A stretch of DNA of 64,000 bases from Rhodospirillaceae bacterium (GCA_038148375.1 JAYQVH010000005.1:43441-107440), one strand, 5' to 3'. Positions 4,098-31,969 are shown, counted from the stretch's first letter. Numbers and translations are program-made. Notes: generated by a model not told the origin, from the sequence alone.

Positions 4098-4192
4098 CGA
4101 ACCTGCGAAAAGATGACTAAAACCTCAGCAACATCCGGCGCTGCACCTGCGTGTGGCCGGCCGGCATCACGTCGAATTCGAGCCCAAGACCA

Positions 4193-4561
4193 ATGATCAC
4201 CGTCATTCTCGTTATCCATTTGCTCATCGCCATCGCCATGATAGGCGTCATTTTGCTGCAAAAGAGCGAGGGCGGTGCCATGGGCGGCGGTCTGACAGGC
4301 GGGGCCTCGGCGACGGGCATGGCCCAGTCCCGCGTCAAGGCGACGCCGATCACCCGGGCGACGACGATCCTGGGTATTTGCTTTTTCGGGACCAGCCTGG
4401 CTCTGGCGATGCTCGCACGCCCGTCGGATACCCCGACATCGATCTTCGAGACCGCACCGGTGCAGGAAGATGGCGGCACGTTGCCGACGGTTCCGGTCGT
4501 TCCAGCCGTGCCCGATGGAGGGTCTGCGCCCGCCGTTCCCAGCGTTCCGACAGACGGCTGA
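4193..4561 (+). CDS. secG: preprotein translocase subunit SecG
   Basis: MITVILVIHLLIAIAMIGVILLQKSEGGAMGGG is the typical SecG N-terminus. Start moved from track position 4151 to the internal ATG at 4193. Conserved tpiA-secG-pyrG order. Confidence 0.85.
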   Translation: MITVILVIHLLIAIAMIGVILLQKSEGGAMGGGLTGGASATGMAQSRVKATPITRATTILGICFFGTSLALAMLARPSDTPTSIFETAPVQEDGGTLPTVPVVPAVPDGGSAPAVPSVPTDG

Positions 4562-7223: not shown

Positions 7224-8525
<1,302 letters not shown>

Positions 8526-14775: not shown

Positions 14776-15468
14776 TTAGTCGCGGACGTTTAACTCAACC
14801 AAGTCGTAAATCTTGTTCCCTTCCGGGAACGTCATGCGGATCGGCAGGAAATCTTCGCCCGCCGTCGTCCACATGCACAGGGTCTTGCCGTCGCGCACCG
14901 GCCAATCCCAACGCTGGCAGGTATACGTACCCGACCTGACCTCAATGGTTTCCTCTCCCTTGTAAACATAGGGATAGCTGCGCATCGCCATGATCGGGCC
15001 GGACTCGCCCGAGGCCAGCGGCGAGGTGTTGACCGCGTTGTCCAGGATCACGGTTTCGCCCACCTTGGCCTTGGGCAATCGGGCAAGTTTCCAGATATCG
15101 GAGCAGATCGGGTGGCTGCCGAAGGCGTTGAGCGGGCGGTCGAGGCTGATGCGCTGGTGGAAGCGTCCTTCGGACACCGTAAAGCCTTCGCCTTCCGCAT
15201 AGGTGTCGGTGAAGCGGAACCACCCGCTGCCGAGCGCGCGGTCTTCCTCGGCGATGCGTACGTAGGCTTCGACCGGATGCCAGTCCGCATCCACGGTGTA
15301 GGTGACGTCGCGGGTCAAACCGATGTCGTCGAATTCGCACAGCACCCTGAGAGTGCGCAGGCCGTTGGCCTGCACACTCATCGAGAAGACTTCGCGGCCG
15401 AATTCGGTCTCAGGTTTGCCCGGCGGGTTCAGGCAATACGAGATTTTGCCGGAGATGAGACGCGGCAC
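14776..15468 (-). CDS. hypothetical protein, 16 nt downstream of and co-oriented with the Tat-FAD oxidoreductase
   Basis: 230 aa ORF with coding-like composition and no motif I recognise. The start codon is uncertain (alternative internal Met at MSVQANG). Confidence 0.5.
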   Translation of the reverse strand: MPRLISGKISYCLNPPGKPETEFGREVFSMSVQANGLRTLRVLCEFDDIGLTRDVTYTVDADWHPVEAYVRIAEEDRALGSGWFRFTDTYAEGEGFTVSEGRFHQRISLDRPLNAFGSHPICSDIWKLARLPKAKVGETVILDNAVNTSPLASGESGPIMAMRSYPYVYKGEETIEVRSGTYTCQRWDWPVRDGKTLCMWTTAGEDFLPIRMTFPEGNKIYDLVELNVRD

Positions 15469-15484
15469 GGACGGCTGTGTCCGC

Positions 15485-17062
15485 CTATATGTCGAACTTC
15501 ATGATGCGCTCACCGAGCAGCTTGCCGAAGGCAATCGCCGGGGTGACCAGCATCCCACCGCAGATCGCCCGGCCGGACGTCGCGCCGGTGCCGAGCAATT
15601 CACCCGCGGCGTAGAGATTGCCGATCGCCTTGCCGTCCTGATTGATGACTTCCAGATCCTTGTTCACGGCCAAGCCGGCTGTGGTGGTCAGGAACCAGCT
15701 GCGCATGTGGATGCCGTAGAACGGGCCTTTCTCGATCGGCAGCGGCATATGGGTGCGGCCGAAGTCTTCATCCACTCCCGTTTCTACCGACGTATTGTAC
15801 TTAGCGACCGTCGCCGCCAGACCTGCTGCACTGATGCCCATCTTGGTGGCGAGTTCTTCGATGGTGTCGGCCTTGTAGAAATTGGTCCAGCCCTCTTCGA
15901 ACGCCACCGGCAGGTCTTCGGCCAGCATTGTGCCGAAACTCGTCGAAACGTATTTCGGGGCGTTGTCGGCGATTTCCTGATCCCACACCGCCCAGCATTC
16001 TTCGCCAGGCTGCTCGACCAGGGCTTCTTCGTAAACCGCGTGACTCAGCACGTCTTCCTGCAGGAAGCGCTTGCCGTCGGCATCGACGATGATCTCCCAC
16101 GGCGGGCGGTCGCCGGGGAAGTGGCGCGCCACAGCGGCCATCGGCGAGGGGAAGTTGTCGTCCGCGAGGATCGCGCCCCACAGCGGCAGGTGGTTCTCAC
16201 CGTACCGCACGTAGCCGCCGACCGACTGACCCAGCTTGATGCCCGCACCCTGGCTGTAGGGATACGACACGTCGGAATAATCCTTCACGCCTTCCAGTTC
16301 TTCGAACATCTGCGCGTTGGAGGCATAGCCGCCGCTGGTCAGCAAGACATTCTTGCCCATGAATTTCTCAGCCTTGCCGTCGGCATTCACAGTGCCGACA
16401 CCGATGACGTTGCCCTTGTCATTGGTCAGCAGTTCTTTCGCCTCGGTGTTGGTCTTGACGGTGACCGTGCCGGACTCAATGTGCGGTGCCAGTTTCTGTT
16501 CGAAGATTTCGAGTACGCCAAGACCGAATTTCGGGCTCCAGGCATAGCGCGCATGACTATATGGCTCGTGCGTCGTGCCGGTGACCGGATGATGCGGATA
16601 CACTTCCAGGCCGCTATCCATAAGCCAGTCGAAAGCAGCTGCCGCGTTTTGCGTGGCCAGACGCAGAATGTCCGGATCGGCAGTGTTGTTGCTTATGCGC
16701 ATGACATCGTCGTAGTGAGACTGCCAGCTGTCTTCCGTAATGCCCTTGGACTTCTGCAGCTTGGAGCCGGCGGCGCTCATTTGCGCGGAGGATAGAAACA
16801 AGGTGCCGCCGATGCTCGAAGCGGCTTCGATGATCAGCACCTTTGCGCCGCGTTCGGCAGCGAAAATTGCCGCTGGCAAACCGGCCGTGCCGCCGCCGAC
16901 GATAACCGCATCGTATTGCGTCTCATGGCCGTCGGCGCGCGCGCCTTTGCTCATGGTTGCTGCGGTCATGGCGGCGACCGCGCCGGACAGGAATTCGCGC
17001 TTGGTCAGGCGTTGCGCCAAAGGCTTGAAATGGGTCAGCCACGAATCGGAAATCTTGGACAT
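15485..17062 (-). CDS. Tat-signal FAD-dependent oxidoreductase (FAD_binding_2; fumarate-reductase/KstD-like flavoprotein)
   Basis: Twin-arginine-like leader LTKREFLSGAVAAMTAATMSKGARA. Dinucleotide fold YDAVIVGGGTAGLPAAIFAAERGAKVLIIE. C-terminal NLYAAGELLG motif. Confidence 0.8.
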   Translation of the reverse strand: MSKISDSWLTHFKPLAQRLTKREFLSGAVAAMTAATMSKGARADGHETQYDAVIVGGGTAGLPAAIFAAERGAKVLIIEAASSIGGTLFLSSAQMSAAGSKLQKSKGITEDSWQSHYDDVMRISNNTADPDILRLATQNAAAAFDWLMDSGLEVYPHHPVTGTTHEPYSHARYAWSPKFGLGVLEIFEQKLAPHIESGTVTVKTNTEAKELLTNDKGNVIGVGTVNADGKAEKFMGKNVLLTSGGYASNAQMFEELEGVKDYSDVSYPYSQGAGIKLGQSVGGYVRYGENHLPLWGAILADDNFPSPMAAVARHFPGDRPPWEIIVDADGKRFLQEDVLSHAVYEEALVEQPGEECWAVWDQEIADNAPKYVSTSFGTMLAEDLPVAFEEGWTNFYKADTIEELATKMGISAAGLAATVAKYNTSVETGVDEDFGRTHMPLPIEKGPFYGIHMRSWFLTTTAGLAVNKDLEVINQDGKAIGNLYAAGELLGTGATSGRAICGGMLVTPAIAFGKLLGERIMKFDI

Positions 17063-17161: not shown

Positions 17162-17533
17162 CTATGCCTTGGCGGACGCGATGGCCGCAAGCAACTGACC
17201 GGCGTCGATCGGTTTGGTCATGGTGCCGGCCACCTTGAGCCCGCCCGTTTCCGCCAAAATTCCGGCCTGGCGCACATAATCCTGACTCTTGCCCGAGACC
17301 AGTATCACGGCGCAACGGTGCGCTTAGTGTTTCAGCCAATCGATCAGCTCAAAACCGTCCCGCTCCGGCATGACGATGTCGATAACCGCCACCTGTGGCT
17401 CAAACTCAAAGAAGATGTCTTCAAATTCATCGGCGGAGGATGCGGTTCGGACCGTTAGTCCATGTTTTTCCACGATCCGCGAGACGAGGTCGGTAAAGCT
17501 TTCCTCGTCGTCCACGACCAAGACCTTATTCAC
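17162..17533 (-). pseudogene. single-domain CheY-like response regulator interrupted by an in-frame TAA (reverse complement of 17324-17326)
   Basis: The track ORF ends at MNKVLVVDDEE...VIDIVMPERDGFELIDWLKH*. My translation in the same frame continues AHRCAVILVSGKSQDYVRQAGILAETGGLKVAGTMTKPIDAGQLLAAIASAKA* (TAG at 17162-17164). That is the expected second half of a receiver domain. Confidence 0.75.
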
Positions 17534-17778: not shown

Positions 17779-18993
17779 ATGTCCCGCTTGTTCAAAGACA
17801 CGACAACATCCCGCCGCGCGTTTCTGGCCGGCACGACCGCGGCTGCCGCAGTGGCGCTGCCGTCGCTCAAGGCTCTGGCCGAGGCGGCGGAGTGGGACGT
17901 CGAATGGCGTGGCACTAACGGCATCTTCGAGCGTCTGCCGTATCTCGACGTCGAGAGCGATCAGGATTTTTACCGCGGCTTTCGCCGCTGGATTAACAGC
18001 GACGTCATCAACGCGGCACGCAAGCGGGCTTTGGAAATCCTGGCCGAGAACGGCATCGCGCCGGACGAAGAGATTCCCATGGATCAGGTCATGGCGCTGA
18101 TGGAAAACGATCACATCATGGGGCTGTGCGTGCTCACCTGGCAAAATACACAGCTGGCTATGTGGCGCCAGATTCAGGACACCTATCACCGCGAAGCCGA
18201 CCTCTATCTGGATGAAATGGAGGCGGCGGAAAAGCTCGGTCCGGGCAGCATCGAACTGCATCCCGAAATGCGCATTCCGCCCTACGCCAGTTTCGAAATT
18301 CACCTCCAGCCCGGCGGGTATGTCGGCGACCCGTTCGCCGGCTACATCTACGTGCACGGCGAGAACGTCGTGTTCAGCAACGGCAACTACCAGGACAACG
18401 CCCAGCGCATGCTGGCCACGCGCGTCCCGGCACCGCCGGACGGCACCGTCAACCGCGTACTCGAACAGGGCTGCAGTTCCGGTCAGTTCACTGTGGCGCT
18501 CAAGCTCAAATGGCCGCAGGCGGAGGTGTGGGGCTCCGACGTCGGCACGCCGATGATCCGCTACGCCCACATGCGTTCGGTCGAGCTCGGCATCGAGACC
18601 CATTACATGCATGAGCTCAGTGAAAAGAGTAACTTCCCGGACAACCACTTCGACGTGGTCACCAACAATCTCTTGTTCCACGAAGTCCCGGCGGACATGG
18701 CCCGCGGCATCATCAATGAGGGCTTCCGCACCTTGCGTCCCGGCGGCATTTACTTCCCCATCGATCAGTTCACCGCCAATCCGCCGAGCAAGAGTGCTTT
18801 CGGCAAGTTCTGGGCGTGGCGGGATTTCCGCTGGAACGAGGAAGTGTGGCGCATGGAATACACCGATCTCGACATGGAAGGGGCGATGCGCGACGCCGGG
18901 TTCGAGGTCGTGAGAGGTCCGGTCGTGCGCATGGGCGGACTTTATTCAGAGCCCGGATCCCGCGGGAACCTTATGGGCATCAAGCCCGCTTAG
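17779..18993 (+). CDS. Tat-signal class I SAM-dependent methyltransferase, paralog A (404 aa)
   Basis: GGAGG lies 7 nt upstream of the ATG at 17779. Leader MSRLFKDTTTSRRAFLAGTTAAAAVALPSLKALA. Methyltransferase motifs VLEQGCSSGQ, EVWGSDVGTPM, FDVVTNNLLFHE and LRPGGIYF. Confidence 0.8.
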   Translation: MSRLFKDTTTSRRAFLAGTTAAAAVALPSLKALAEAAEWDVEWRGTNGIFERLPYLDVESDQDFYRGFRRWINSDVINAARKRALEILAENGIAPDEEIPMDQVMALMENDHIMGLCVLTWQNTQLAMWRQIQDTYHREADLYLDEMEAAEKLGPGSIELHPEMRIPPYASFEIHLQPGGYVGDPFAGYIYVHGENVVFSNGNYQDNAQRMLATRVPAPPDGTVNRVLEQGCSSGQFTVALKLKWPQAEVWGSDVGTPMIRYAHMRSVELGIETHYMHELSEKSNFPDNHFDVVTNNLLFHEVPADMARGIINEGFRTLRPGGIYFPIDQFTANPPSKSAFGKFWAWRDFRWNEEVWRMEYTDLDMEGAMRDAGFEVVRGPVVRMGGLYSEPGSRGNLMGIKPA

Positions 18994-19004: not shown

Positions 19005-20189
19005 ATGCCCGATCGCAGAACCGCATTTCAGACCGCTGCCGCTGTCGCCGGTGGTGTCGCCGGACTGTTCGGCAGCCGCGCGTCACAGGCCAAGCTGCCG
19101 GCTTCGGCCGACGTCGAACCGCGCGGCACGGATCGCCGTCTTGAGCGGTTGCCTGAACTGGATGTGGAAAGCCGCGAGGATTTTCTCACCCGCTTTCGCA
19201 TCTGGGTGAACGGAGACGTCCGCCGCGCCGCATCGGAGCGCGGCGATAAGATCATGGCAGCCAAGGGGCTCGATCCGCGCGCGGACATCACCTACGAGGA
19301 AGCGGTTGAGTTGATCGGCGACGACCACATCGTCGGGCTGAGCGGCCGGGCCTGGATTAGTGCCCAGCAGCTGATGTGGAAGAACCTGCAAACCGCCTTC
19401 TACGACAACGCCGACGCTTACCTGGATGAGATGGAAGCGGCGGATAACGCCGGTCCGGGCAAGCTCGAACTCAATCCGGACATGTACATCCCGAAATACT
19501 GCAAGCATGAGATTCACATGCAGCCGGGCGGTTATGTCGGCGATCCCTTAGGCGGCTATGTCTATCACTACGGCACCAACAACTTCTGGGAAGGCCGCAA
19601 CAGCCAGGACGAGATGGACAAGCAACTGGCCGACGCCATTCCGACCCCGGCGGACGGCAAGGTCAAACGCATCCTGCACATGGGGTGCAGCGCCGGTCAG
19701 CTGACCCTGCGCATTCAGGAACGCTTCCCCGACGCCGAGGTCTGGGGCGTCGATGTTGGCGGCCCGATGGTCCGTTACGCCCACATGCGTGCCGTCGATC
19801 TCGGCATCGGTGCGAACTTCCGCCAGGCCCTGGCAGAGGACACCGGGTTCCCCGACGGCTATTTCGACATGGTGACATCCTTCCTGCTGTTCCATGAAGT
19901 CAGCTCGGAAGGGGCGGACGACATCATCAAGGAAGGTTACCGCGTGCTGCGGCCGGGCGGGGTGTTCTATTCCCGCGATCAGCGCGACTGGGATAAGCTG
20001 CCGCCGGCCACCGCCTTCCAGAAATACCAGAGCTTCTGGATCAACCGTTGGAACCACGAGGTCTGGCAGCGCGAGCACCGGTCGAACAACTATCCGAAGA
20101 TGCTCTCCGATGCCGGATTCAAGGTCGGCTCGCCGTTCGAGGGCGGCATGATCGCCCAGGCGTCGTTGATGGGGACCAAGCCGGTCTAA
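19005..20189 (+). CDS. Tat-signal class I SAM-dependent methyltransferase, paralog B (394 aa)
   Basis: AGGAG lies upstream of the ATG at 19005, 11 nt after the paralog A stop. Leader MPDRRTAFQTAAAVAGGVAGLFGSRASQA. Motifs ILHMGCSAGQ, EVWGVDVGGPM, FDMVTSFLLFHE and LRPGGVFY. Confidence 0.8.
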   Translation: MPDRRTAFQTAAAVAGGVAGLFGSRASQAKLPASADVEPRGTDRRLERLPELDVESREDFLTRFRIWVNGDVRRAASERGDKIMAAKGLDPRADITYEEAVELIGDDHIVGLSGRAWISAQQLMWKNLQTAFYDNADAYLDEMEAADNAGPGKLELNPDMYIPKYCKHEIHMQPGGYVGDPLGGYVYHYGTNNFWEGRNSQDEMDKQLADAIPTPADGKVKRILHMGCSAGQLTLRIQERFPDAEVWGVDVGGPMVRYAHMRAVDLGIGANFRQALAEDTGFPDGYFDMVTSFLLFHEVSSEGADDIIKEGYRVLRPGGVFYSRDQRDWDKLPPATAFQKYQSFWINRWNHEVWQREHRSNNYPKMLSDAGFKVGSPFEGGMIAQASLMGTKPV

Positions 20190-20296: not shown

Positions 20297-21484
20297 ATGC
20301 TCGACCGCAGAACCCTGTTTTCCACCGCCGCTGCCGGCGCGACCGCCGCATCCCAGCTTGTCGGAGGCCGCAAGGCCAAGGCCGCTAAATCCGGCTTCAA
20401 AGGCGATGTTGAAATGCGCGGCAGCAAGGGCCGCCACGAACGCCTGCCGACTCTGGATCTCGAAAGCCAGCAGGACTTTCTTACCGGTTTTCGCAACTGG
20501 ACCCAGCAGGGTTTCCGCACTCTTGCGCCGAAACGTATGGATCAGCGGCTGGAAGAGCGCGGCATCGACCCGAAGTCCGACCCGCCGATTGATATCGTTA
20601 AAGACATCGCCGACAACGACACCGTGCTCGGCTTGGCCGCGCACACCTGGCTGAACTGCCAGTATCTGACCTGGAAAACCATTCAGGATCATTTCCATGC
20701 CGACGCCGACCGCTATTTCGACGAACTCGAAGCAGCTGACAAGACCGGTCCGGGAACGCTGGAACTGAATCCGGATATGGATCTGCCGGATCACACCAAA
20801 CACGAAATTCACATCATGCCCGGCGGCTACGTCGGCGACCCGTTGGGCGGCTACGTCTTCCATCACGGCACCAACAACTTCTACACCAACCGCAACAACC
20901 AGGACGAACTGCATCAGGTCTATGCGGACTCCGTGCCGGTTCCCGAAGACGGTAAAGTCAGTCGCGTCCTCGAAGTCGGCTGCACCATCGGCCAGATGAC
21001 CATCGCCCTCAAGGAGCGGTTCAAGGACTCAGAAGTTTGGGGCATCGACGCCGGCGGCCCGATGCTGCGCTACGGCCACATGCTCGCCGTCGACCTCGGC
21101 GTGGATGTCAACTTCGCGCAGCGTCTGGCCGAAGACATGAAGTTCGAAGACAACAGCTTCGACATCGTGACGTCGTACATCCTGCACCACGAAATGCCGG
21201 CTGAGATTTCCAAGCAGCACATTCGCGAAGCCTTCCGGGTGCTGCGACCGGGCGGCGTGTTCTTCCCGATCGACTTCTACACCGGCGGCAACAAGCCGTC
21301 GCCGCTCGCCCACCGCAAGTACCGCCACTACTGGGATATGCGCTGGAACAACGAAGTGTGGTGGGACGAATACGAAAACCTCGACATGCTGGCGGCGATG
21401 AAGGATGCCGGGTTCGACGCTACGGACCAGGGGCCGCCGGCCTGGATCGGGCCGAACAACCTGATCGGCATCAAGCCCGCTTAA
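20297..21484 (+). CDS. Tat-signal class I SAM-dependent methyltransferase, paralog C (395 aa)
   Basis: AGGAGG lies upstream of the ATG at 20297. Leader MLDRRTLFSTAAAGATAASQLVGGRKAKA. Motifs VLEVGCTIGQ, EVWGIDAGGPM, FDIVTSYILHHE and LRPGGVFF. Confidence 0.8.
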   Translation: MLDRRTLFSTAAAGATAASQLVGGRKAKAAKSGFKGDVEMRGSKGRHERLPTLDLESQQDFLTGFRNWTQQGFRTLAPKRMDQRLEERGIDPKSDPPIDIVKDIADNDTVLGLAAHTWLNCQYLTWKTIQDHFHADADRYFDELEAADKTGPGTLELNPDMDLPDHTKHEIHIMPGGYVGDPLGGYVFHHGTNNFYTNRNNQDELHQVYADSVPVPEDGKVSRVLEVGCTIGQMTIALKERFKDSEVWGIDAGGPMLRYGHMLAVDLGVDVNFAQRLAEDMKFEDNSFDIVTSYILHHEMPAEISKQHIREAFRVLRPGGVFFPIDFYTGGNKPSPLAHRKYRHYWDMRWNNEVWWDEYENLDMLAAMKDAGFDATDQGPPAWIGPNNLIGIKPA

Positions 21485-22581
21485 TCGGTCTTTCTAGGCG
21501 TTCCGACGTAGATGCCGAGGCCGCGCGCGGTCTCGAGCATCTCATGATGCGGATCGACCACCCGCGGTCCGGTGATCGCCACGTCCATATCGACGGTGGT
21601 GACATGGCCGCCGGTCCAGGCAGACATTTTTCGTGTCTCGCCTTTCATCAAGGTGTCGACGGCGTTGACGCCCATCGCAGAGCCGAGCAGGCGGTCGAAC
21701 ACGGCCGGCGTGCCACCCCGTTGCAGATGACCGAGGACGGTACAGCGCGTCGACACGCCTGTTCCCTTCGCCAAGGCATCGGCCAGCACCGTGCCGACCC
21801 CGCCCAGCGCGCGGTTGGAGCCGAAATAAGGCATGCCGATCAGTGCGCCCTTGGGATCCGGGGTGCCTTCGGCGACGACGACCAGGATATGGGCGCGTTC
21901 TTTCGCGCGGATGCGTTTAATGTGCGCGATCAGGTCAGTGATGTCGTACCGCAGTTCCGGCATCAGGATGGCGTCGGCGCCGCCGGCGACACCGCCGTAC
22001 AAGGCAAGAAAGCCGGACTCCCGGCCCATGGTTTCCAGCACCATGATGCGGCGATGGCTGGTCGCCGTGGTGTGCAGCCGGTCGAGCGCGGAGCCGACGA
22101 TATCGACGGCGGTGATGAAGCCCACGGAGAAATCCGTGCCCGGAACGTCATTGTCGATGGTCTTGGGTACGCCCACCCAGGGGATGCCCGACGGCGTGAG
22201 GAGTTTGTCGAAGATGCGCATGCTGCCGTCGCCACCGATCACGACCATGGCGTCTACGCCGAGGTGGCGAATGGCCTTTATGATATCGCCGGAGCGATCG
22301 GACGTGCCGCCGCTTTCGTCGGGATAGGCCCAGGGATCGCCTTGGGTTGTGGCCCCCAGCATCGTGCCGCCGGCGCGCAGGAGTTCGCCCTCGAACAGGC
22401 CGAGCGTCAATCGCTGAAATCGCGGCGGATCGGCGAGCAAGCCGTGCTGGGCTTCGTTAATGCCAATGACCTCGCAGCCGAAATGTTCGATGGCGTGCTG
22501 GACGACACCGCGGATCACGGCATTGAGACCGGGGCAGTCGCCGCCGCTGGTGAGAATGCCAAGTGTTTTTATGGCGCCCAT
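21481..22581 (-). CDS. pfk: 6-phosphofructokinase (ATP- or PPi-dependent not resolved)
   Basis: 366 aa with LGILTSGGDCPGLNAVIRGVV, VVIGGDGS, PKTIDND and LGHLQRGG motifs. Confidence 0.9.
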   Translation of the reverse strand: MGAIKTLGILTSGGDCPGLNAVIRGVVQHAIEHFGCEVIGINEAQHGLLADPPRFQRLTLGLFEGELLRAGGTMLGATTQGDPWAYPDESGGTSDRSGDIIKAIRHLGVDAMVVIGGDGSMRIFDKLLTPSGIPWVGVPKTIDNDVPGTDFSVGFITAVDIVGSALDRLHTTATSHRRIMVLETMGRESGFLALYGGVAGGADAILMPELRYDITDLIAHIKRIRAKERAHILVVVAEGTPDPKGALIGMPYFGSNRALGGVGTVLADALAKGTGVSTRCTVLGHLQRGGTPAVFDRLLGSAMGVNAVDTLMKGETRKMSAWTGGHVTTVDMDVAITGPRVVDPHHEMLETARGLGIYVGTPRKTD

Positions 22582-22682
22582 TCACAACTCCTGCCGGGCG
22601 TGAGACCGATTGATTTTAATTAAAGCGCGGGACGCCGTGCAAGCCTATGATACCCCCCTCAGTTAACTACGTCACATGTGCC

Positions 22683-24173
22683 ATGTTGAAAATTCGCCGC
22701 ATACCGATCGATACGCTTGGGGAAAACGTCGTTTACCTGTCCGACCTCTGCCAAGTCTATCGCGTCGACGCATTCAAAGGCGGCAACAAAGTCGAAGTCG
22801 GTGCCAGCGGACGCCAGGTCATAGCCGTCATCAACGTCGTTCACGGCAATCATCTCCTTGAACCGGACGAAGTCGGGCTTTGCACCGACGCTTTCGAAGA
22901 ATTGGGACTGAGCGAAGGTACGCAAGTCGTCCTGAACCCGACCTTGTCGCCGGCCAGCATGGATTACGTCCGCAATAAAGTTTACGGCCAAACGCTCACC
23001 CGTGCCCAGTTGCTGGAAATCGTCACAGACATCGCCGGGCACCGGTACTCTCGCATGGAAATCACGGCATTTCTGATGGCCTGCGCCGCGTTCATGACGA
23101 CCGAGGAAGTGCTCGATCTGACGCTTGCGATGGCCGAGGTGGGCAGCCGCCTCGACTGGAAGCAGGAGATCGTCGTCGATAAACATTGCATCGGCGGCTT
23201 GCCCGGCAACCGCACGTCGATGATTGTCGTGCCCATCGTCGCCGCGCACGGACTGCCCATTCCGAAAACCTCGTCACGGGCGATTACATCTCCGGCGGGC
23301 ACAGCGGACACCATGGAAGTGCTGGCCAATGTCGATGTGCCGATCGACCGCATGATCGATATGGTCGCGGAGATCAAAGGGTGCTTGGCGTGGGGCGGTC
23401 ACGTCAATCTGTCCCCGGCGGACGATATTCTGATTTCGGTCGAGCGGCCGCTGGCCATCGACACGCCGGAACAGATGGTGGCGTCCATTCTGTCCAAGAA
23501 AATCGCCGCCGGATCGACGCATATGGTGATCGACATGCCGGTTGGGCCCACGGCCAAGGTTCGCTCGCACCACCAGGCCGTGAAGCTGCGCAAACTCTTT
23601 GAATTTGTCGGTCACGAAGTGGGCCTGAATTTGGACGTCGTGATCACCGACGGGACTCAGCCCATCGGCAACGGCATTGGCCCGGTGCTGGAGGCGCGCG
23701 ACGTTATGGCGGTCCTGCGCGGCGAAGACTCAGCGCCGGCTGACCTCCGCGACCGTGCGCTTTTGCTGGCGGGACACGTGCTCGAATTTGATACCAGCCT
23801 TCATGGCGGCGAAGGTTTCAACAGGGCACGCGAGTTGCTCGAAAGCGGAGCGGCACTGCGGACGATGGAACGGATCATGGACTATCAGGGCCCGCCGCCG
23901 GAGGCGTACGCGCTCGGCGAGTTGTGTCACGCCGTCACGGCGCCGGCCAGCGGCGTCGTGACGGCCATTGATTGCTACCGGATCGCGCGCATCGCGCGCG
24001 CTGCCGGCGCACCGGTGTTCAAGGGCGCGGGACTTGATCTGCATCGCAAGGTCGGCGATCCGGTCGAGCGCGATGAGCCTCTGTATACCCTTTATTCCGT
24101 GATCGAATCAGACGCCGCGAATGCACTGGCGATGGTTGAGGCGGACAACGCCTATGCCATTCAGGCGATCTGA
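22683..24173 (+). CDS. thymidine-phosphorylase-family protein of the long, archaeal AMP-phosphorylase-like type
   Basis: About 496 aa from the ATG at 22683. It has an extra N-terminal domain (MLKIRRIPIDTLGENVVYL...GTQVVLNPTLSPASMDYVRNKVYG). This precedes the glycosyltransferase-3 core (DKHCIGGLPGNRTSMIVVPI, TSSRAITSPAGTADTMEVL). Confidence 0.8.
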   Translation: MLKIRRIPIDTLGENVVYLSDLCQVYRVDAFKGGNKVEVGASGRQVIAVINVVHGNHLLEPDEVGLCTDAFEELGLSEGTQVVLNPTLSPASMDYVRNKVYGQTLTRAQLLEIVTDIAGHRYSRMEITAFLMACAAFMTTEEVLDLTLAMAEVGSRLDWKQEIVVDKHCIGGLPGNRTSMIVVPIVAAHGLPIPKTSSRAITSPAGTADTMEVLANVDVPIDRMIDMVAEIKGCLAWGGHVNLSPADDILISVERPLAIDTPEQMVASILSKKIAAGSTHMVIDMPVGPTAKVRSHHQAVKLRKLFEFVGHEVGLNLDVVITDGTQPIGNGIGPVLEARDVMAVLRGEDSAPADLRDRALLLAGHVLEFDTSLHGGEGFNRARELLESGAALRTMERIMDYQGPPPEAYALGELCHAVTAPASGVVTAIDCYRIARIARAAGAPVFKGAGLDLHRKVGDPVERDEPLYTLYSVIESDAANALAMVEADNAYAIQAI

Positions 24174-25075
24174 TGACGGTGCCGGCACAAAAGGTTGGCG
24201 TCGTAGGGTTCGAGCAGGACGCCCAAGCGGCCACGCGGTTGGCGCAGGCGCTGACCTGCGACTTCGGGATGATCGAACGTCACACGTTTCCCGATGGGGA
24301 GTCGTTGGTGCGCGCGCCGGAGTGCCCGGAGACAGTCGTGCTGTACGCCGCTCTTGATCGCCCCAACGCCAAGATCTTCGATCTGTGTCTGGCGGTGGAC
24401 GCGCTGCGCCGCCGCGGTGTCCGACGCATTGTGCTGGTAGTCCCCTACTTGCCCTACATGCGCCAGGACAAAGCGTTTCACTCCGGCGAGGCCGTGAGCC
24501 AGCAGGTGTTGGGCGCACTGCTGGCAGGCCGGATCGACGGCCTTGTAACCGTCGATCCCCATTTGCACCGGGTGAATGACCTGCAAGAGGTGTTTACAGG
24601 ACTTAAGACCGCCGCTGTCTCCGCCGCGCCGTTGGTCGCTCAGGCGGTTAAAACTCGCCTCGACAGCGGCCGCGCTGTTGTGATCGGGCCGGATGAGGAG
24701 TCCACGCCTTTGGTGCGCTTGCTCGGGGAAGCAGCGGGTTGCGCGTGGATGGCCGGGACCAAACGTCGCAGCGGCGACCGCCAGGTCGAGCTGACTCTCC
24801 CTGACGAGCCCAAACTGGCCTGCCGGACGGCGGTGATCTTCGACGATGTCGTGAGTTCGGGCACCACGGTTTGCGCCGTGGCTCAAGCGGCAAAGGACGC
24901 GGGCGCGGCGGAGATACTGGTCTACACCACCCACGCATTGTTCAGCGGTGAGGATGAGGCGCGCATGCGGGACGCGGGAGTGGCGTCGTTCGTTTCATGC
25001 GATGGCGTCCCCCACGCCACAAACGGCATTGCCCTTGCCCCTGTTCTGGCTGAGGCTGTTCAGTCATGTCTGTAA
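24173..25075 (+). CDS. ribose-phosphate pyrophosphokinase-family protein (Prs-like)
   Basis: 300 aa with VVPYLPYMRQDK and the PRPP-type loop VIFDDVVSSGTT. The start overlaps the upstream stop (TGATG). Confidence 0.8.
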   Translation: MTVPAQKVGVVGFEQDAQAATRLAQALTCDFGMIERHTFPDGESLVRAPECPETVVLYAALDRPNAKIFDLCLAVDALRRRGVRRIVLVVPYLPYMRQDKAFHSGEAVSQQVLGALLAGRIDGLVTVDPHLHRVNDLQEVFTGLKTAAVSAAPLVAQAVKTRLDSGRAVVIGPDEESTPLVRLLGEAAGCAWMAGTKRRSGDRQVELTLPDEPKLACRTAVIFDDVVSSGTTVCAVAQAAKDAGAAEILVYTTHALFSGEDEARMRDAGVASFVSCDGVPHATNGIALAPVLAEAVQSCL

Positions 25076-26703
25076 CTCTGACCTTTCACGGTGCATGCGG
25101 CATTGTCACCGGATCCTGTTTTCGGCTGAGCACCGCCAAGGCGACCGTGCTGATCGAATGCGGGTTGTTCCAGGGGACCAAGACGGTGCGCAATCTGAAC
25201 TACGGGCCGCTGCCGTTTGACCCGAAAAGCATCGCCGCAACCGTGCTGACCCATGCCCATATCGATCACTGCGGGCTTGTGCCCAAGCTGGTGCGCAGCG
25301 GGTTCAAAGGCGATATCTTCGCGACACCCGCAACCGGCGATCTGCTGAGTTATGTGCTGCCCGACAGCGGTCACATCCAGGAAATCGAAGTCGAGCGCCT
25401 GAACTGGCGCAATCGCCGGCGCGGTCAACCGCCGGTGTCGCCGATTTACACCCGCAAGGATGCCGAAGACGCGCTCTCCCGTATTGTGCCCAAGGAGTAC
25501 CAGGAGTGGTTTGACATCGCGCCGGGCATGCGCGGCCGGTATTGGGACGCCGGGCATATTCTGGGTTCGGCCAGCCTGGAACTCGCCGTCGAATTACCCG
25601 ATGAAGACAAACCGCTGTCGCTTCTGTTTTCGGGAGATATCGGGCCTGGCGGTAAAGTGCTCCATGACGATCCCGATGCGCCGCATGACATCGATGCGGT
25701 GATCATGGAGACAACGTACGGCGACCGGGAGCGCGATGATTTAACACCGGAGCAACGCCGCGCTCACCTTGGCGATGTCATTCAGCGGGGACTGGGAAAG
25801 GGGGGCCTTATTCTGATTCCCTGTTTCGCCGTCGAACGCACCCAGGAGCTGTTGGTTGATCTCGACGCATTGTTTGATTCGCGTGCGCTTCCCGAGGTGC
25901 CAGTTTACGTCGATTCCCCACTGGCAACGCGTGCGACCGAGGTATTTGACAGACATCTGGAAGACCTCGCCGATGATGGACCAACCCATCCGTTCCGGCG
26001 CGGCAACGTCCGGTTCGTCAAAGACGTCGAGGAGAGCAAGGGTCTCAGCCGCCTGAGCGGCGGGGCGATTATCATGGCCGGCAGCGGCATGGCCGATGCG
26101 GGCCGCATTCGCCATCACCTGCGCAACAACCTGCATAAAACCAATACGACCGTCTTGCTGGTCGGCTATCAGGCGCCTGGGACGATGGGACACTTGCTGT
26201 GCAACGGGCGCAAGATGGTGCGAATTCACGGTGAGGAAATCTCGGTCAAAGCCGAAATTGTCATGATTGACGAGTATTCCGGTCACGCCGACGACCGTGC
26301 GCTGTTGGCATGGCTCGGTGACAGGCTGCCGGTTCACAACGACATCTTCTTGGTCCATGGCGAGGAACCGTCCCGCGTGGCCTTCGCCGCGGCGGCACGG
26401 GAACGCTTTGGCGCGGATTTGCCGCTGCGGTTGCCGGTGATGGGGGAGACGGTCAGCCTGAGCAAATCCAAGCCGGCCAAGACCCTGGCGAAACGGCCTC
26501 CGCTCATCGATCCGGCGGATACGATCGCGGATTGGCACAATATGTATGCGGAGACGATATTGGCCCTGCGTCACGCTCTGGAGGCGGCGGCAAACGATAA
26601 GGAACGCCGTCATCTCTTGGAGCGCATGGCGAAGGTGATCGGCGACAAGCGCTCACATGCAAAGGACCGCCGGACCGTGCGGAGCCAGCGCAAGAAGGGC
26701 TAG
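25066..26703 (+). CDS. MBL-fold beta-CASP hydrolase (RNA-metabolising metallo-beta-lactamase family)
   Basis: 545 aa with THAHIDHCGLVP (HxHxDH), METTYGDR and DEYSGHAD motifs. It overlaps the upstream gene by 10 nt. Confidence 0.8.
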   Translation: MSVTLTFHGACGIVTGSCFRLSTAKATVLIECGLFQGTKTVRNLNYGPLPFDPKSIAATVLTHAHIDHCGLVPKLVRSGFKGDIFATPATGDLLSYVLPDSGHIQEIEVERLNWRNRRRGQPPVSPIYTRKDAEDALSRIVPKEYQEWFDIAPGMRGRYWDAGHILGSASLELAVELPDEDKPLSLLFSGDIGPGGKVLHDDPDAPHDIDAVIMETTYGDRERDDLTPEQRRAHLGDVIQRGLGKGGLILIPCFAVERTQELLVDLDALFDSRALPEVPVYVDSPLATRATEVFDRHLEDLADDGPTHPFRRGNVRFVKDVEESKGLSRLSGGAIIMAGSGMADAGRIRHHLRNNLHKTNTTVLLVGYQAPGTMGHLLCNGRKMVRIHGEEISVKAEIVMIDEYSGHADDRALLAWLGDRLPVHNDIFLVHGEEPSRVAFAAAARERFGADLPLRLPVMGETVSLSKSKPAKTLAKRPPLIDPADTIADWHNMYAETILALRHALEAAANDKERRHLLERMAKVIGDKRSHAKDRRTVRSQRKKG

Positions 26704-27004: not shown

Positions 27005-28195
27005 ATGCTCGACCGCCGTACTCTGTTTGGCGCCACAGCCGCCACATCCGCTTTCGTCTCCTCCCTGTTCAAGGGCCGCGCGCCGAAAGCCGCGACCAGC
27101 GCTGCCGTAACCTTCCAGGATGTCGAGAAGCGCGGCACCATGGGCCGCCTTGAGCGTCTGCCGGCGCTGGACCTCGAAAGCAGCCAGGACTTCCTCACCG
27201 GCTTCCGCAACTTCGTCAACCGCGACATGCGCCAGGTGACCCTGCGCCGGTTCACCAAGCTGCTCGAAGCCAACGGCCTCGATCCCAAGGAAGATCTGTC
27301 CATGGAGGTCGTGTTGCCGCTGGTCGAGAAAGACCCGATCCTGATGATGAGCGTGCGCGGCTGGGTTTCAAATCAGCAGCTGACCTGGAAGCAGGTTCAG
27401 GATTACTTCCACGCCAATGCTGAGACCTACCTCGCCGAGATGGAATCGGCCGATACCTCCGGACCGGGCTCGCTTGAACTCAATCCGGGTGTCGAGCCGG
27501 AATACACCAAGCATGAAATTCACATCCAGCCGGGTGGCTACGTCGGCGACGAATTCGCGGGCTATATTAACTACTACGGCGTCAATAACTTCTATGGCGG
27601 CAGCAACTACAACGACGAAGTGCAGGCGTCGATTGCCGAGCGGGTGCAGACTCCGCCGGACGGCAAGGTCAACCGCATCCTCGACATCGGCTGCGCCACG
27701 GGCCGTCTGACCATCGCGCTCAAGGACCGCTTCCCCGATGCCGAAGTCTGGGGTCTGGACGTCGGCGGACCGATGGTCCGCTTCGCCCATACCCGCTCGG
27801 TCGATCTCGGCAAGGACATTCACTACGTTCAGCGCCCGGCTGAGGACACCCGGTTCCCGGACAATCATTTCGATTTGGTGGCGGCCTATATCCTGTTCCA
27901 CGAAGTGACGTCGGAAGCCCAGGATCAGATCGTCGCCGAAGCCATGCGCATCCTACGTCCGGGCGGCGTGTTCTTCCCGATCGATTTCCGGACCGGCAAG
28001 CAAGCCGGCAAAGGCGACGCCTACCGCGCGTTCTCGACGTGGTGGGATCATCGTTTCAACGGCGAGCCCTGGCGTTTAGAATATGCGTCGCGTGATTTCG
28101 CCGACGTCATCCGCAGCCACGGCTTCGAAGTCAACGAAGACATTCCGGCGGCCCGCCGCGGCCACGGCGCCATCATGGCGGTCAAGCCGGCCTAA
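27005..28195 (+). CDS. Tat-signal class I SAM-dependent methyltransferase, paralog D (396 aa)
   Basis: Leader MLDRRTLFGATAATSAFVSSLFKGRAPKA. Motifs ILDIGCATGR, EVWGLDVGGPM, FDLVAAYILFHE and LRPGGVFF. Same overall architecture as paralogs A-C. Confidence 0.8.
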   Translation: MLDRRTLFGATAATSAFVSSLFKGRAPKAATSAAVTFQDVEKRGTMGRLERLPALDLESSQDFLTGFRNFVNRDMRQVTLRRFTKLLEANGLDPKEDLSMEVVLPLVEKDPILMMSVRGWVSNQQLTWKQVQDYFHANAETYLAEMESADTSGPGSLELNPGVEPEYTKHEIHIQPGGYVGDEFAGYINYYGVNNFYGGSNYNDEVQASIAERVQTPPDGKVNRILDIGCATGRLTIALKDRFPDAEVWGLDVGGPMVRFAHTRSVDLGKDIHYVQRPAEDTRFPDNHFDLVAAYILFHEVTSEAQDQIVAEAMRILRPGGVFFPIDFRTGKQAGKGDAYRAFSTWWDHRFNGEPWRLEYASRDFADVIRSHGFEVNEDIPAARRGHGAIMAVKPA

Positions 28196-28328: not shown

Positions 28329-28808
28329 TTAGTCGGGATCGGTGTCGTCGACACTGTCGCTGTCCGCAAGTTCCAAGATGCCAAAGGTGGCCAAGGCGAG
28401 ACCGCCGGCGACGACGAACCAGCCTTGCGGTCCCATGCCGAGGACCGAATGCCGGGTGCCGTCGGGATCGTCCAAACGTGACGGCAGCAATGACCTGTTG
28501 GCCAGTTGCACGTCATCAAGGCCTTGCGCTGTAAAGCTGACGTTCATCAGCTGCGGAGAGTCGAACATCAGTCGCAGGTTTTGACTGCGGCCGCTGATGG
28601 GCATCTGCGAGAGCGCAAAGCCATATTCCGGCCCGGACTGATGGTCTTCAGCGTGGAGCGGTACTTTGAAATACACCATGCCGGTCGTGCCGCCCCGGAC
28701 ATCCCAGGCGTTCATCGGATCGAAATCGGCGGCGGAGGACTGGTTCGTCCACGTCAGGGCGATAGTCAGGCTGAAGAGAGTCGAATAGATTGATTTCCGG
28801 TTCATCAT
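28329..28808 (-). CDS. exported hypothetical protein with a C-terminal hydrophobic helix and acidic tail
   Basis: Signal peptide MMNRKSIYSTLFSLTIALTWTNQSSA. C-terminus GWFVVAGGLALATFGILELADSDSVDDTDPD. No recognisable family. Confidence 0.5.
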   Translation of the reverse strand: MMNRKSIYSTLFSLTIALTWTNQSSAADFDPMNAWDVRGGTTGMVYFKVPLHAEDHQSGPEYGFALSQMPISGRSQNLRLMFDSPQLMNVSFTAQGLDDVQLANRSLLPSRLDDPDGTRHSVLGMGPQGWFVVAGGLALATFGILELADSDSVDDTDPD

Positions 28809-28881
28809 TTAAATCTCCTATGTGTGAAGAATAGGGTGGGGAACCAATTTCCAGATTGGTTCCCCGCAGCGGTGATTGGAG

Positions 28882-30147
28882 TTACGGCGTGAAGAACTCG
28901 GTGAGTTCGATGCGGATGAGAGTTTCTTCCTCGTCCTCATCTCCGTCTTCTTCCTCGCCTTCCGCGTCAGGGTCGTCCGCTTCATCACCGTCGTCTTCGC
29001 CGGCATCCTCTTCATCTTCCGGTTCGACGGCTTTGGTTTCGAGGATCATACCGACACCAGGCGCGTAGTACTTCAGTTCGGTGACACCGGGTTCGAGCGG
29101 GGTGTAATCGCGGGTGACCAGGCAGGTGCCGGCACACATCGCCGCGGGCACGACCGCTGACCCTTCGGTATCGACGATGTCAGCGACATCCTCAGCTTCT
29201 GACACCAAGTACTCTTGGCGGTAGGTCAGGCCAGTCATCGGGTTGGCAAACATCAGGATGCCGGGTTGCGCGCTGTCGACACCGGCGGTCCACGATCCGT
29301 CGATATCGACGATGCGGCCGTCTTCATAATTCAGTGCGATTTCGCCGAAGTACCAGACGTTGCCGTCCAAATCCTGAGCGTAATAGTCCCTGGTGTCTTC
29401 GATCTCGACGCCGTCTTCGGTGACGAGGTCACGCACCACGACAACAGGAACATCCAGGATTTCAAAGACGTCTTCGGTGACCGTCACCTGAATGACTTCG
29501 CCGTCACCTTCGTAGGTCCACATCGTGCCCGCGACCAGGGGAAAGTAGGGGTTCGGATCGACGGTGACGCCGATATCGGCAGGATTGACGAAGTTCTCGG
29601 GGTCGATTGAGACTTCGAAGCGGGACTCGCCGAGATTGCCGCAGACGTCTTCGCGGGCTTCAAGTACGGCTTCGCACTCTTCCGTCGTTTCCTCAAAATC
29701 TTCGTAGGCGAAGTGACGGCAATCCGCGTGACCGATGGGATCGCTAACGTTCGTGCAATTCGACTGCGCCGTCCAGAAATCGTCCGCCGCATCGTAACCG
29801 CACGCGACATACGCGAGACGGGCCGTCTGGGTGCAAAACGCGGGGTCCGCATCGCTCTCGTCGGTGACGTCTTCCGCGAATGAAATGAGGTCCGCGACGA
29901 CGGCGTCATACGCGTCCAGCTGACCATCCAGATCTTCGATGATGTCGTCCGCATCTTCGATGTCCATTTGCACACCGTCGAATTCGTCTTCGAATTCATC
30001 TGCATGTGCGCGCAATGACAGGGATACGATTGCGGATAACATCACCAAAACGGCAAACACATTCAGAGCCCACGCAAGTAGATATCCCTGTGACTCGCCG
30101 CCTCGTGACTCCGTCCGCCGGCGCTTAAATAAATTATTGAGTTTCAT
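28882..30147 (-). CDS. highly acidic, Cys-containing exported or membrane-anchored hypothetical protein
   Basis: 421 aa. N-terminal basic stretch plus TM (KRRRTESRGG..YLLAWALNVFAVLVMLSAIVSLSL). Eight Cys residues. Poly-acidic C-terminus EPEDEEDAGEDDGDEADDPDAEGEEEDGDEDEEE. No recognisable family. Confidence 0.55.
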   Translation of the reverse strand: MKLNNLFKRRRTESRGGESQGYLLAWALNVFAVLVMLSAIVSLSLRAHADEFEDEFDGVQMDIEDADDIIEDLDGQLDAYDAVVADLISFAEDVTDESDADPAFCTQTARLAYVACGYDAADDFWTAQSNCTNVSDPIGHADCRHFAYEDFEETTEECEAVLEAREDVCGNLGESRFEVSIDPENFVNPADIGVTVDPNPYFPLVAGTMWTYEGDGEVIQVTVTEDVFEILDVPVVVVRDLVTEDGVEIEDTRDYYAQDLDGNVWYFGEIALNYEDGRIVDIDGSWTAGVDSAQPGILMFANPMTGLTYRQEYLVSEAEDVADIVDTEGSAVVPAAMCAGTCLVTRDYTPLEPGVTELKYYAPGVGMILETKAVEPEDEEDAGEDDGDEADDPDAEGEEEDGDEDEEETLIRIELTEFFTP

Positions 30148-30335: not shown

Positions 30336-30851
30336 ATGAACGATGACAGCCAGTTCCAGGCGGTGATCGCGTCGTTTCAGCCGCTGTTGCGGCGCTTCCT
30401 TGTTGCCCGGCTCGGCAACGAAGCGGATGCCGACGATGCCCTTCAGGACACATTGATCAAGTTGCATGCCGCCATGGCCGGCGGTGAGATCGACAATCCA
30501 AAAGCGTTCGCGTTTACGATTGCGCGAAACGTGTCGGTGGACATTGTCCGCCGCTCGGCGCGCGCCAAATCGCGTGACTCGGCGTACGGGGAAACACAAA
30601 CAGAGCGGGCAGGGGATGATTTTGTCGACCGCCAGCCCGGACCTGAACAACAGATGTCCGGCCGGTAACAGATCGACCTCGTCTTGAATGCCTTGGACGG
30701 ACTGTCGCCCAAGGTGCGCCGGGCCTTTGTCCTGCATAAAATCGACGGGTTGTCCTACGCGGAGGTGGCGGACCGCATGGGATTGTCCAAGAGCACAGTA
30801 GAAAAACACATGATCAAGGCATTGCGCCGGGTCGGAGAGGTGCTGCGATGA
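30336..30851 (+). pseudogene. ECF (FecI-like) sigma-70 family factor interrupted by an in-frame TAA at 30666-30668
   Basis: Region 2 lies in the track ORF (LLRRFLVARLGNEADADDALQDTLIKL, AFAFTIARNVSVDIVRR). It ends ...EQQMSGR*. The same frame continues QIDLVLNALDGLSPKVRRAFVLHKIDGLSYAEVADRMGLSKSTVEKHMIKALRRVGEVLR* (TGA at 30849-30851), which is a complete region 4. Confidence 0.8.
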
Positions 30852-30960: not shown

Positions 30961-31965
30961 ATGACGGAACATGAACGCATAGAGGCCGAAGCGCTTCATT
31001 GGGTCGAACGCATGAATACGGGCGACCTGTCCGACCAGGACATGGAAGCCTATGTGGAGTGGATGGAGGCGGACTCCGCGCACGCCGATGCGTTCCGGCG
31101 ATTGGATGCCGCCTGGATCGCGACGGCAGACGCTGCGGGCGACATTCGTGCCCGATTCGGACCCGAAGCGCGGGCGGATGACGCGCCCTCAAGCCTGTCG
31201 GCCGCAGTTCTGGCGTTCTTGCGTCCCGGATTGACGCCGCGGTTCGCGGCGACTGTTGCCGCCGCTGTGGCGATCGTAATCGTCGCGCTACAACCGCCGG
31301 CGCCATCATCGACCGATATCATTGCTTACCGAGCGGGAGCGGATGTGCGCCGGGATGTTGAGCTTGACGACGGTACACGTGTGACGCTCAACGTGAATGC
31401 CGAAATGGCGGTCTCTTTTGACTCCGGTCAGCGCAATGTTCGGTTGCGGGCAGGTGAGGCCTATTTCGATGTGGCGCGCGATGAGTCCCGGCCGTTTGTC
31501 ATCGAAGCCGGTGACGGCCGGGTTGCCGTTCTCGGCACCGCCTTCAATATGCGTCTGACCGAGCATGGGTTTACCGTCGCGGTTACGGAAGGACGCGTCG
31601 CAGTCAGCCCGACACCGGATCTGCCCGATGCCAATTCGCAGGTTTTGACACCCGATCAGGCGGCGGACGTTGACACCCGCATCGCGGCTTTAACATTGTT
31701 CCCCGTGGATGCGGACGCGATCTCGGCCTGGCGCCGCGGACAGCTCATCTACCGGGATGCTCCGCTCGCTGAGGTGATTGGCGATATTTCCCGGTATGTC
31801 GGCGCAAACATCGTCCTGGATGATTCTGAACTCTCAAGCGAACTATTTACCGGCGTCCTCACCACCGATGTGCCAGATGCTATGGTGGAACGCCTGATTG
31901 AACTGATGGACCTTCATGCCGTTGCCGACGAAAGTGGGACGATCAGTATCTCGCGCCAAAAGTAG
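30961..31965 (+). CDS. FecR-family anti-sigma factor / transmembrane sensor
   Basis: 334 aa. N-terminal EAEALHWVERM..WMEADSAHADAFRRL anti-sigma motif, a central TM segment, and a FecR domain (TLNVNAEMAV, LRAGEAYFDVA, GTAFNM). Confidence 0.85.
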   Translation: MTEHERIEAEALHWVERMNTGDLSDQDMEAYVEWMEADSAHADAFRRLDAAWIATADAAGDIRARFGPEARADDAPSSLSAAVLAFLRPGLTPRFAATVAAAVAIVIVALQPPAPSSTDIIAYRAGADVRRDVELDDGTRVTLNVNAEMAVSFDSGQRNVRLRAGEAYFDVARDESRPFVIEAGDGRVAVLGTAFNMRLTEHGFTVAVTEGRVAVSPTPDLPDANSQVLTPDQAADVDTRIAALTLFPVDADAISAWRRGQLIYRDAPLAEVIGDISRYVGANIVLDDSELSSELFTGVLTTDVPDAMVERLIELMDLHAVADESGTISISRQK

Positions 31966-31969
31966 AGTC

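Follow-up and report, generated by a model that had tools for sequence, protein, structure and literature searches.

A 64,000-nt stretch of a Rhodospirillaceae bacterium genome (GCA_038148375.1, JAYQVH010000005.1:43441-107440; "the window" refers to this whole stretch) carries four paralogous genes, A to D, whose products share an N-terminal region (N-region; residues 45-215 of copy A) ahead of a class I S-adenosylmethionine (SAM)-methyltransferase core. We found that the N-region matches no named domain and that it behaves as two parts in AlphaFold2 models: a variable helical bundle that folds by itself and a highly conserved strand and loop that need the methyltransferase core. On balance, residues 45-215 are probably a composite, family-specific N-terminal elaboration and not a transferable domain, and we put at slightly better than even the chance that they act as a specificity cap combined with a catalytic loop. 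A tblastn search with copy A as the query detected exactly four copies in the window, and in all four the N-region precedes the core. The genes and their N-regions are as follows:

17779-18993, + strand: copy A gene, 404 residues
19005-20189, + strand: copy B gene, 394 residues
20297-21484, + strand: copy C gene, 395 residues
27005-28195, + strand: copy D gene, 396 residues
17911-18423, + strand: N-region of copy A, residues 45-215, as placed by the earlier note on this DNA (correctly, A starting at 17779)
19110-19640, + strand: equivalent N-region of copy B, residues 36-212
20405-20935, + strand: equivalent N-region of copy C, residues 37-213
27119-27646, + strand: equivalent N-region of copy D, residues 39-214

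Copies B-D were 46-49% identical to A, identities across all pairs were 46-50%, and a four-way alignment of the N-region had 54 of 177 columns invariant in all copies. All of the conserved blocks that the earlier note had described as common to the paralogs were present in this alignment. Y(L/F)(D/A)E(M/L)E(A/S)A(D/E)xxGPGx(L/I)EL(N/H)P and (H/F)EIHxxPGGYVGD, the latter followed by GY, were found as described, as was the (I/T/V)KP(A/V) C-terminus of all four proteins. Two other blocks were present with small corrections: the last W of ERLPxLDxESxxDFxxxFRxW is F in copy D, and the helix-like W/Q block has the spacing W-x3-Q-x3-W-(K/R)-x2-Q, from which the dots in the note were off by one. N-region identity was 47-48%, about the whole-protein level, so that the blocks stand out and not the region overall. 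Conservation of the region is nevertheless far beyond chance, since the N-region alone retrieved 97 protein clusters, with E values down to 1e-111, and a profile of it 234 representatives at 50% identity among 1.84 billion proteins. One match, P0175 (1521 residues with 16 matched stretches), was a low-complexity repeat protein and was discarded as spurious. The N-region always stood ahead of this methyltransferase core in the 234 representatives, which bears out the proposal that it is specific to this family.

The earlier note had been unable to assign the region to a named domain, and Pfam, NCBIfam, a PDB profile search and Foldseek on the isolated region all ended without a credible match. 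The four isolated N-regions gave zero Pfam matches at E ≤ 10, and hence no confident assignment to a known cap domain. Full-length Pfam and NCBIfam searches placed nothing on residues 45-190, their methyltransferase models beginning from about residues 192-225 onward, and a PDB search with a profile of 45 full-length homologues matched solved structures over residues 217-340 only. The lone PDB-profile match to the N-region, 9dyt "R699" (E 0.003, 20.7 bits), had few identities, was not seen by Foldseek and was set aside as a chance match. A Foldseek search of the PDB with the AlphaFold2 model of the isolated N-region, a check that the note had proposed, returned nothing significant (best E 3.6). 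The full-length model gave 1127 Foldseek matches in the PDB at E ≤ 0.001, and those listed were methyltransferases or proteins of the methyltransferase fold, with query TM-scores (TMq) of at most 0.42. DsyB, SgvM, SibL, Rv2258c and 3ocj were considered as homologues of the N-terminal domain and rejected, their whole-length alignments having root mean square deviations (rmsd) of 12-18 Å with only the cores superposed.

The core was recognized with confidence. Copies A and D scored 55.2 and 77.3 bits against Methyltransf_25 (cut-off 27) and 50.1 and 71.4 bits against Methyltransf_11 (cut-off 21.2). In an alignment of 280 non-identical family sequences collected from protein searches and 84 loci, to which the family-wide frequencies given here refer, the SAM motifs were kept (G231 in 93%, G235 in 100%, D254 in 97% and E282 in 98%), with the middle Gly of the G-loop G231-G235 replaced by S, A or T. 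A Rossmann-like seven-stranded fold was supported by the strand order of the AlphaFold2 model, by the Foldseek matches and by recovered β2-β3 and β1-β4 covariation. Judged from their sequences, the four proteins belong to the class I SAM-methyltransferase superfamily, with methyl transfer itself as their predicted activity. All of the NCBIfam equivalogs compared (CpaM, UbiE/MenG, BioC, Tam and RquA) were far below their cut-offs; CpaM was the best, at 46.9/64.4 bits versus 180, and the UbiE model reached 25-52 bits versus 158.

We next describe the anatomy of the N-region and of the adjoining core, using copy A numbering:

17779-17880, + strand: residues 1-34, twin-arginine leader with an SRRAFLAG motif, an Ala-rich h-region and an ALA|E cleavage-like site
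17896-17943, + strand: residues 40-55, conserved extended segment DVExRGxxGxxERLP, predicted local distance difference test score (pLDDT) 55-80
17944-18231, + strand: residues 56-151, variable helical bundle, the proposed specificity cap
18232-18336, + strand: residues 152-186, most conserved stretch, with GPG, strand 157-159 and a Pro-rich loop containing P167
18295-18330, + strand: residues 173-184, EIHxxPGGYVGD signature (E173-I174-H175, P178-G-G-Y181-V-G-D184)
18337-18426, + strand: helices 187-197 and 204-214, ordinary N-terminal helices of the class I fold
18427-18993, + strand: residues 217-404, class I SAM-methyltransferase core and C-terminal lid, ending in KPA
18679-18684, + strand: H301-E302, within the core
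18835-18843, + strand: N353-E355, in the lid

The full-length AlphaFold2 model of copy A (pLDDT 86; predicted TM-score 0.85) contained bundle helices at residues 56-90, 101-108, 112-138 and 140-151, followed by the short strand 157-159, the loop 160-186, helices 187-197 and 204-214, and β1 at residue 226. When the N-region was modeled without the core, the bundle remained steady (pLDDT 84-97, versus 87-98 in the full model). In contrast, residues 152-216 dropped to 45-72: the conserved 152-186 stretch, at 76-90 with the core, fell below 50-70, and the EIH/PGGYVGD loop to less than 50. These results indicate that the bundle is self-folding and that the conserved loop needs the Rossmann core. 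Since the Pfam alignments begin at residue 192 for the model MTS and at residue 218 for Methyltransf_23, residues 187-216 correspond to the usual class I helices. The single domain of about 170 residues envisaged in the earlier note is thus not what the models show: only about residues 56-151 fold on their own, residues 152-186 depend on the core, and the remainder belongs to the ordinary fold.

The same division was apparent in the family-wide alignment, in which the strand and loop were the most conserved part of the protein and the bundle and lid the most variable:

Strand and loop, residues 152-186: mean top-residue frequency 0.72; 31% of columns at least 90% conserved
Rossmann core, residues 217-330: mean top-residue frequency 0.67; 31% of columns at least 90% conserved
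Helical bundle, residues 56-151: mean top-residue frequency 0.48; 3% of columns at least 90% conserved
C-terminal lid, residues 331-404: mean top-residue frequency 0.44; 4% of columns at least 90% conserved

Seven residues, P167, H175, G235, D292, H301, E302 and R317, were conserved in 100% of the sequences, and those at 95% or more included G179, G180, Y181, G188, D254, R261, H264, E282, E314, N353 and E355. With database homologues added to the four copies, a motif core proved conserved throughout the family. The EIHxxPGGYVGD motif, which had been called invariant, is so across the four copies, but family-wide only P167 and H175 of this stretch reach 100%; G179 (99%), Y181 (96%) and G180 (95%) follow, with E173, I174, P178, G183 and D184 at 90-94%, and the signature shrinks to P167...(E-I)-H175-x-x-P-G-G-Y181. 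N353 and E355 in the lid stood at 95-99%, and R44, G45 and R52 in the 40-55 segment at 88-89%. The ratio of nonsynonymous to synonymous substitution between orthologues was 0.03-0.20 and alike for the signal, bundle, loop and core; the N-region is under purifying selection equal to that on the core. Two other Rhodospirillaceae loci, from metagenome-assembled genomes (MAGs), contain a separate orthologue of every paralog, with 80-95% identity in one (L001) and 69-79% in the other (L004), indicating that the paralogs are old and individually retained, which fits distinct specificities. One gene of L004, L4c, is a within-locus duplicate of L4b, to which it is 82% identical.

Contacts between the two parts of the N-region and the core were examined by mean-field direct coupling analysis of the 280 sequences (effective number of sequences, 161). 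The analysis recovered expected strand pairs (S253-M277, L228-F291, V227-V293 and F300-Y325). Strong couplings placed the bundle on helix 187-197 (M147-Y189, rank 2; M128-V197; W129-G194), and V192-Y262 was also strong (rank 5). S157 and H161 coupled with residues 274-279 (ranks 10, 12, 39, 45 and 51), S157-M277 and S157-E279 being in the top 12; from this cluster, residues 157-161 form an extra edge strand beside β3, on the adenine/ribose side of the SAM site. Weaker couplings linked the loop to the core (Y169-V255, F172-E354, A170-P304, A170-F344, L176-Q330, L176-D349, P178-W347 and Y181-Q236), and the 44-54 segment was weakly coupled to β1, β2 and the G-loop side. Eight of the 13 top-300 couplings from residues 165-186 to the core reached the G-loop, D254, the segment after β4 or the lid, elements that account for about 25% of the core. 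By a column-shuffle control, individual couplings could be trusted only within the top 8-30 or so. The loop couplings are mutually consistent yet not individually significant, and they suggest a position above the SAM and substrate pocket for loop 169-181.

These contacts also bear on a different role for the bundle, namely that residues 56-151 mainly provide a dimer interface, as the N-terminal domains of plant-type O-methyltransferases, DsyB and SgvM do. DsyB (7wdq), SgvM (8ftv), SibL and Rv2258c, which are among the top full-length Foldseek matches, carry N-terminal helical dimerisation domains, and the two long helices of the bundle (35 and 27 residues) are typical of dimer interfaces. The DsyB-type alignments, however, have rmsd values of 16-18 Å and TMq values of 0.36-0.42 with only the cores superposed, the isolated N-region has no structural neighbor in the PDB, and PF00891 stays below threshold. 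In addition, strong covariation puts the bundle on its own helix 187-197, although covariation cannot separate inter- from intramolecular contacts. We therefore regard a mainly oligomeric function as improbable.

Comparison with characterized methyltransferases identified candidate functional residues. The carboxyl O-methyltransferases CysG and BelI of the cystargolide and belactosin pathways (9FCD, 9FCE and 9G0K) were the best PDB profile match (E 1.6e-13) and were also among the top Foldseek matches, with a class I core in both cases. The catalytic Ca2+ of CysG has His122-His123 and Asp191 as its ligands, in a site gated by the N-terminus (PMC11408123). In a HMMER alignment, the metal-binding His-His of these enzymes, directly after strand 4, aligned with the invariant H301-E302 of our family. 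The N-terminal segment of CysG/BelI closes over their active site, and the region that follows strand 5 supplies the third ligand (PMC11408123); by position, E355 or N353 is a candidate for the equivalent of CysG Asp191. The match was limited to residues 217-334 at about 20% identity, and the window pair is His-Glu. CysG/BelI are cytoplasmic proteins of 215-230 residues that have a short N-terminal tail and lack the bundle, the EIH/PGGYVGD loop and a twin-arginine translocation (Tat) leader, whereas the window proteins have 394-404 residues including a 170-residue N-region.

Three further groups shared the core. Phosphoethanolamine N-methyltransferases (PfPMT, 3UJ7; AtPMT, 5WP4/5WP5) ranked high among the core matches, and their catalytic His after strand 4 falls within one column of H301. 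In PfPMT, a Tyr of the N-terminal lid pairs with the catalytic His, a possible analogy to Y181 or H175; their lid is, however, about 40 residues long without a bundle, and their substrate is unrelated, as is their sequence beyond the core. With generic Methyltransf_11/25 proteins (YcgJ, 1XXL; UbiE/Coq5; CpaM, NF043040) the window proteins share Pfam models, on which they score above the gathering threshold, and the SAM motifs, but none of those proteins has the N-region. Plant-type O-methyltransferases of family 2 (DsyB, 7WDQ; SgvM, 8FTV, which is metal dependent; SibL, 4QVG) combine a helical N-domain with a Rossmann core and occupied the top full-length Foldseek rows, but with full-length rmsd values of 16-18 Å, TMq values of at most 0.42 and an N-domain that was unmatched when searched alone; PF00891 was found below its cut-off and in copy D only (E 0.039; 13.7 bits versus 22.3). 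The proteins thus appear to lie outside any named equivalog, the CysG/BelI family and O-methyltransferase family 2.

Class I methyltransferases bind SAM along the C-terminal edge of strands 1-3 and have their catalytic residues right after strand 4, and their substrate is contacted by an N-terminal segment and an insertion after strand 5. On this pattern, the four-helix bundle 56-151 would rest on the first core helix, 187-197, and, jointly with the C-terminal lid 331-404, which is just as variable, would form the cap that chooses the substrate; it is here that A-D differ. Strand 157-161 would join the β3 edge of the Rossmann sheet, and the loop would then cross the C-terminal edge of the sheet at the SAM site, bringing H175 and Y181 beside H301-E302 after β4 and N353/E355 in the lid. 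These residues may form a catalytic center in which a small-molecule nucleophile would be activated for methyl transfer, whether by a His/Tyr/Glu set working as acid and base or by a divalent metal bound much as in the His-His-Asp Ca2+ site of CysG/BelI. The metal version specifically, proposed by analogy, is a tentative idea that we consider rather unlikely. The cap or substrate-binding role suggested in the earlier note fits the AlphaFold2 model, the conservation and the covariation, though not in the form of one domain.

Several points weigh against the proposed combination of specificity cap and catalytic loop. The loop-to-pocket couplings score 0.8-1.3, a range in which at least a third may be noise, the column-shuffle maximum being 1.75 with only eight real couplings above it, and the list of active-site elements was drawn up after the couplings had been seen. 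The position of loop 169-181 over the pocket, and with it the proximity of H175 and Y181 to SAM, H301, E302 and E355, is suggested by covariation. Metal binding, the cap function and methyl transfer are, like the loop placement, what we infer from the data above. The pair H301-E302 is His-Glu and not His-His, and the equivalent of CysG Asp191 did not align. Finally, we know of no supply of SAM behind a Tat leader, which calls ordinary methyl-transfer turnover into question.

The leader itself was well conserved. That of copy A scored 17.5 bits against TIGR01409 (cut-off 16.7) and 13 bits against Pfam TAT_signal, below its cut-off of 22.7; the leaders of copies B-D, judged by eye, have DRRT(A/L)F and Ala/Gly-rich cores. 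R12 and R13 were invariant in 45 homologues, and an RR leader was present in 154 of 172 family open reading frames (ORFs). The four proteins are accordingly classed as predicted Tat-exported proteins. Among full-length members, 111 of 145 had the RR leader, and the other 34, of about 355-365 residues, began at the N-region with the motif kept. These leaderless relatives rule out the N-region as an export device and indicate that it belongs to the enzyme and not to the export signal.

Export raises the alternative that SAM, perhaps with a metal, is enclosed as a permanent cofactor and that the holo-protein is exported by Tat for a non-methylating, single-turnover or ligand-binding role in the periplasm. 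The conserved leader, with its RR pair and a TIGR01409 score above the cut-off, agrees with this, and leader-bearing members conserve the SAM-binding positions just as well. The weak couplings of the 44-54 segment and the 157-170 loop to the G-loop/D254 side point in the same direction, as do the clustering of the genes with a Tat flavoprotein, TonB-dependent receptors and a FecR/extracytoplasmic function (ECF) module, and the fact that a periplasmic methyltransferase was not described in the literature searched. Nevertheless, the leaderless, presumably cytoplasmic relatives share the N-region and its invariant residues, which argues that the architecture did not arise as an adaptation to export, and both SAM turnover and export are predictions. 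We consider export of such a holo-protein improbable as well. A more specific form, slightly less probable still, is that the strand, loop and lead-in seal SAM and possibly a metal (at H175, H301, E302 and E355), that the protein is exported by Tat pre-loaded, with its SAM not consumed or used for a single turnover, and that the enzyme acts on compounds imported via the neighboring TonB-dependent receptors. If true, this would represent periplasmic SAM enzymology so far undescribed. A literature search on periplasmic or Tat-exported methyltransferases found nothing relevant to the family.

Immediately upstream of 36 leader-bearing methyltransferase genes, but of none of 18 leaderless ones, is a gene for a conserved cytoplasmic helical protein of about 120 residues, as might be expected if the N-region were an export-related pro-region or chaperone-docking site with no catalytic role. 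But this gene is absent from the window, the leaderless members keep the N-region, and the strongest conservation falls on single polar residues (H175 and Y181), as expected for chemistry and not for docking; such a role is very unlikely. The specificity cap with a catalytic loop remains the reading that we prefer.

The ~120-residue protein family is leaderless, occurs in 37 of the 85 family loci and has no homologue in the window; its members may serve as a dedicated chaperone or partner. Examples of its genes are found at 8119-8490 and 11259-11621 in L002, 9574-9987 in L005, 6317-6688, 11203-11568 and 16554-16895 (− strand) in L006, and 4102-4467 and 5705-6067 in L007.

The surroundings of the array are consistent among its close relatives. 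A Tat-leader flavin adenine dinucleotide (FAD) flavoprotein gene lies upstream of, and divergent from, copy A:

15485-17062, − strand: Tat-leader FAD flavoprotein

Its product most resembles urocanate reductase and the fumarate reductases of the flavocytochrome c type (PDB 6t85, E 1e-43). The gene is followed by one for a conserved 230-residue partner protein with no family match (pair at 14776-17062, − strand), relatives of which occur in 15 of the 85 family loci. Downstream of D are genes for two acidic exported proteins, an ECF sigma factor, FecR and a TonB-dependent receptor, and the same cluster recurs in L001 and L004. The acidic proteins, strongly so and of 159 and 421 residues (28329-30147, − strand), have no Pfam or NCBIfam match and lie beside the array in four of the 85 loci, the closest relatives only. 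Other family loci contain up to at least nine paralogs together with TonB receptors, SBP_bac_5 proteins and major facilitator superfamily (MFS) transporters. A TonB receptor related to that of the window was present in 26 of 85 loci and a related flavoprotein in 24 of 85, these being raw counts without a background control. Such surroundings suggest that imported organic compounds are handled in the periplasm.

Three genes for signaling or transport around the array each contain one in-frame stop relative to intact orthologues in L001 and L004: a response regulator (17171-17530, − strand; TAA at 17324-17326), the ECF sigma factor (30336-30848, + strand; TAA at 30666-30668) and the TonB-dependent receptor (31946-34450, + strand; TAG at 32360-32362). 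The FecR gene and all four methyltransferase genes are intact. A 5.5-kb block with phosphofructokinase, thymidine/AMP-phosphorylase-like, Prs-like and β-CASP genes stands between C and D (21481-26703); the closest relative, L001, lacks it and has its four paralogs in one unbroken run.

A genome scan found 215 matching stretches, all in MAGs. The hosts are Rhodospirillaceae (marine and from Lake Baikal), other Alphaproteobacteria, Gammaproteobacteria, Marinimicrobia and Rhodobacterales; the family is rare and seen only in MAGs of uncultured aquatic bacteria. One 21-kb stretch (L007) contains at least nine methyltransferase genes, six of which match the N-region profile, and the Rhodospirillaceae MAG CBDHFR01 has at least 10 separate loci (L011, L049, L050, L052-L054, L057, L059, L061 and L075).

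Class I methyltransferases gain specificity by add-ons around a constant core, and given this habit an unnamed cap alone would be unsurprising; the N-region would be a new family-specific elaboration of a known fold. What it defines is a rare, coherent and completely unstudied family, with 234 representatives among 1.84 billion proteins, in which an invariant His joins a His/His-Glu/Asn-Glu constellation with the look of a new catalytic or metal center. The leader on most members makes one ask how a SAM-using enzyme could function outside the cytoplasm, and the arrays of four to at least nine paralogs beside TonB-dependent receptors and periplasmic flavoproteins suggest that the family helps aquatic bacteria to process organic compounds that they import. 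The main value of the finding is that a short list of residues, H175, Y181, H301, E302, N353 and E355, makes the puzzle of an exported SAM enzyme directly testable.

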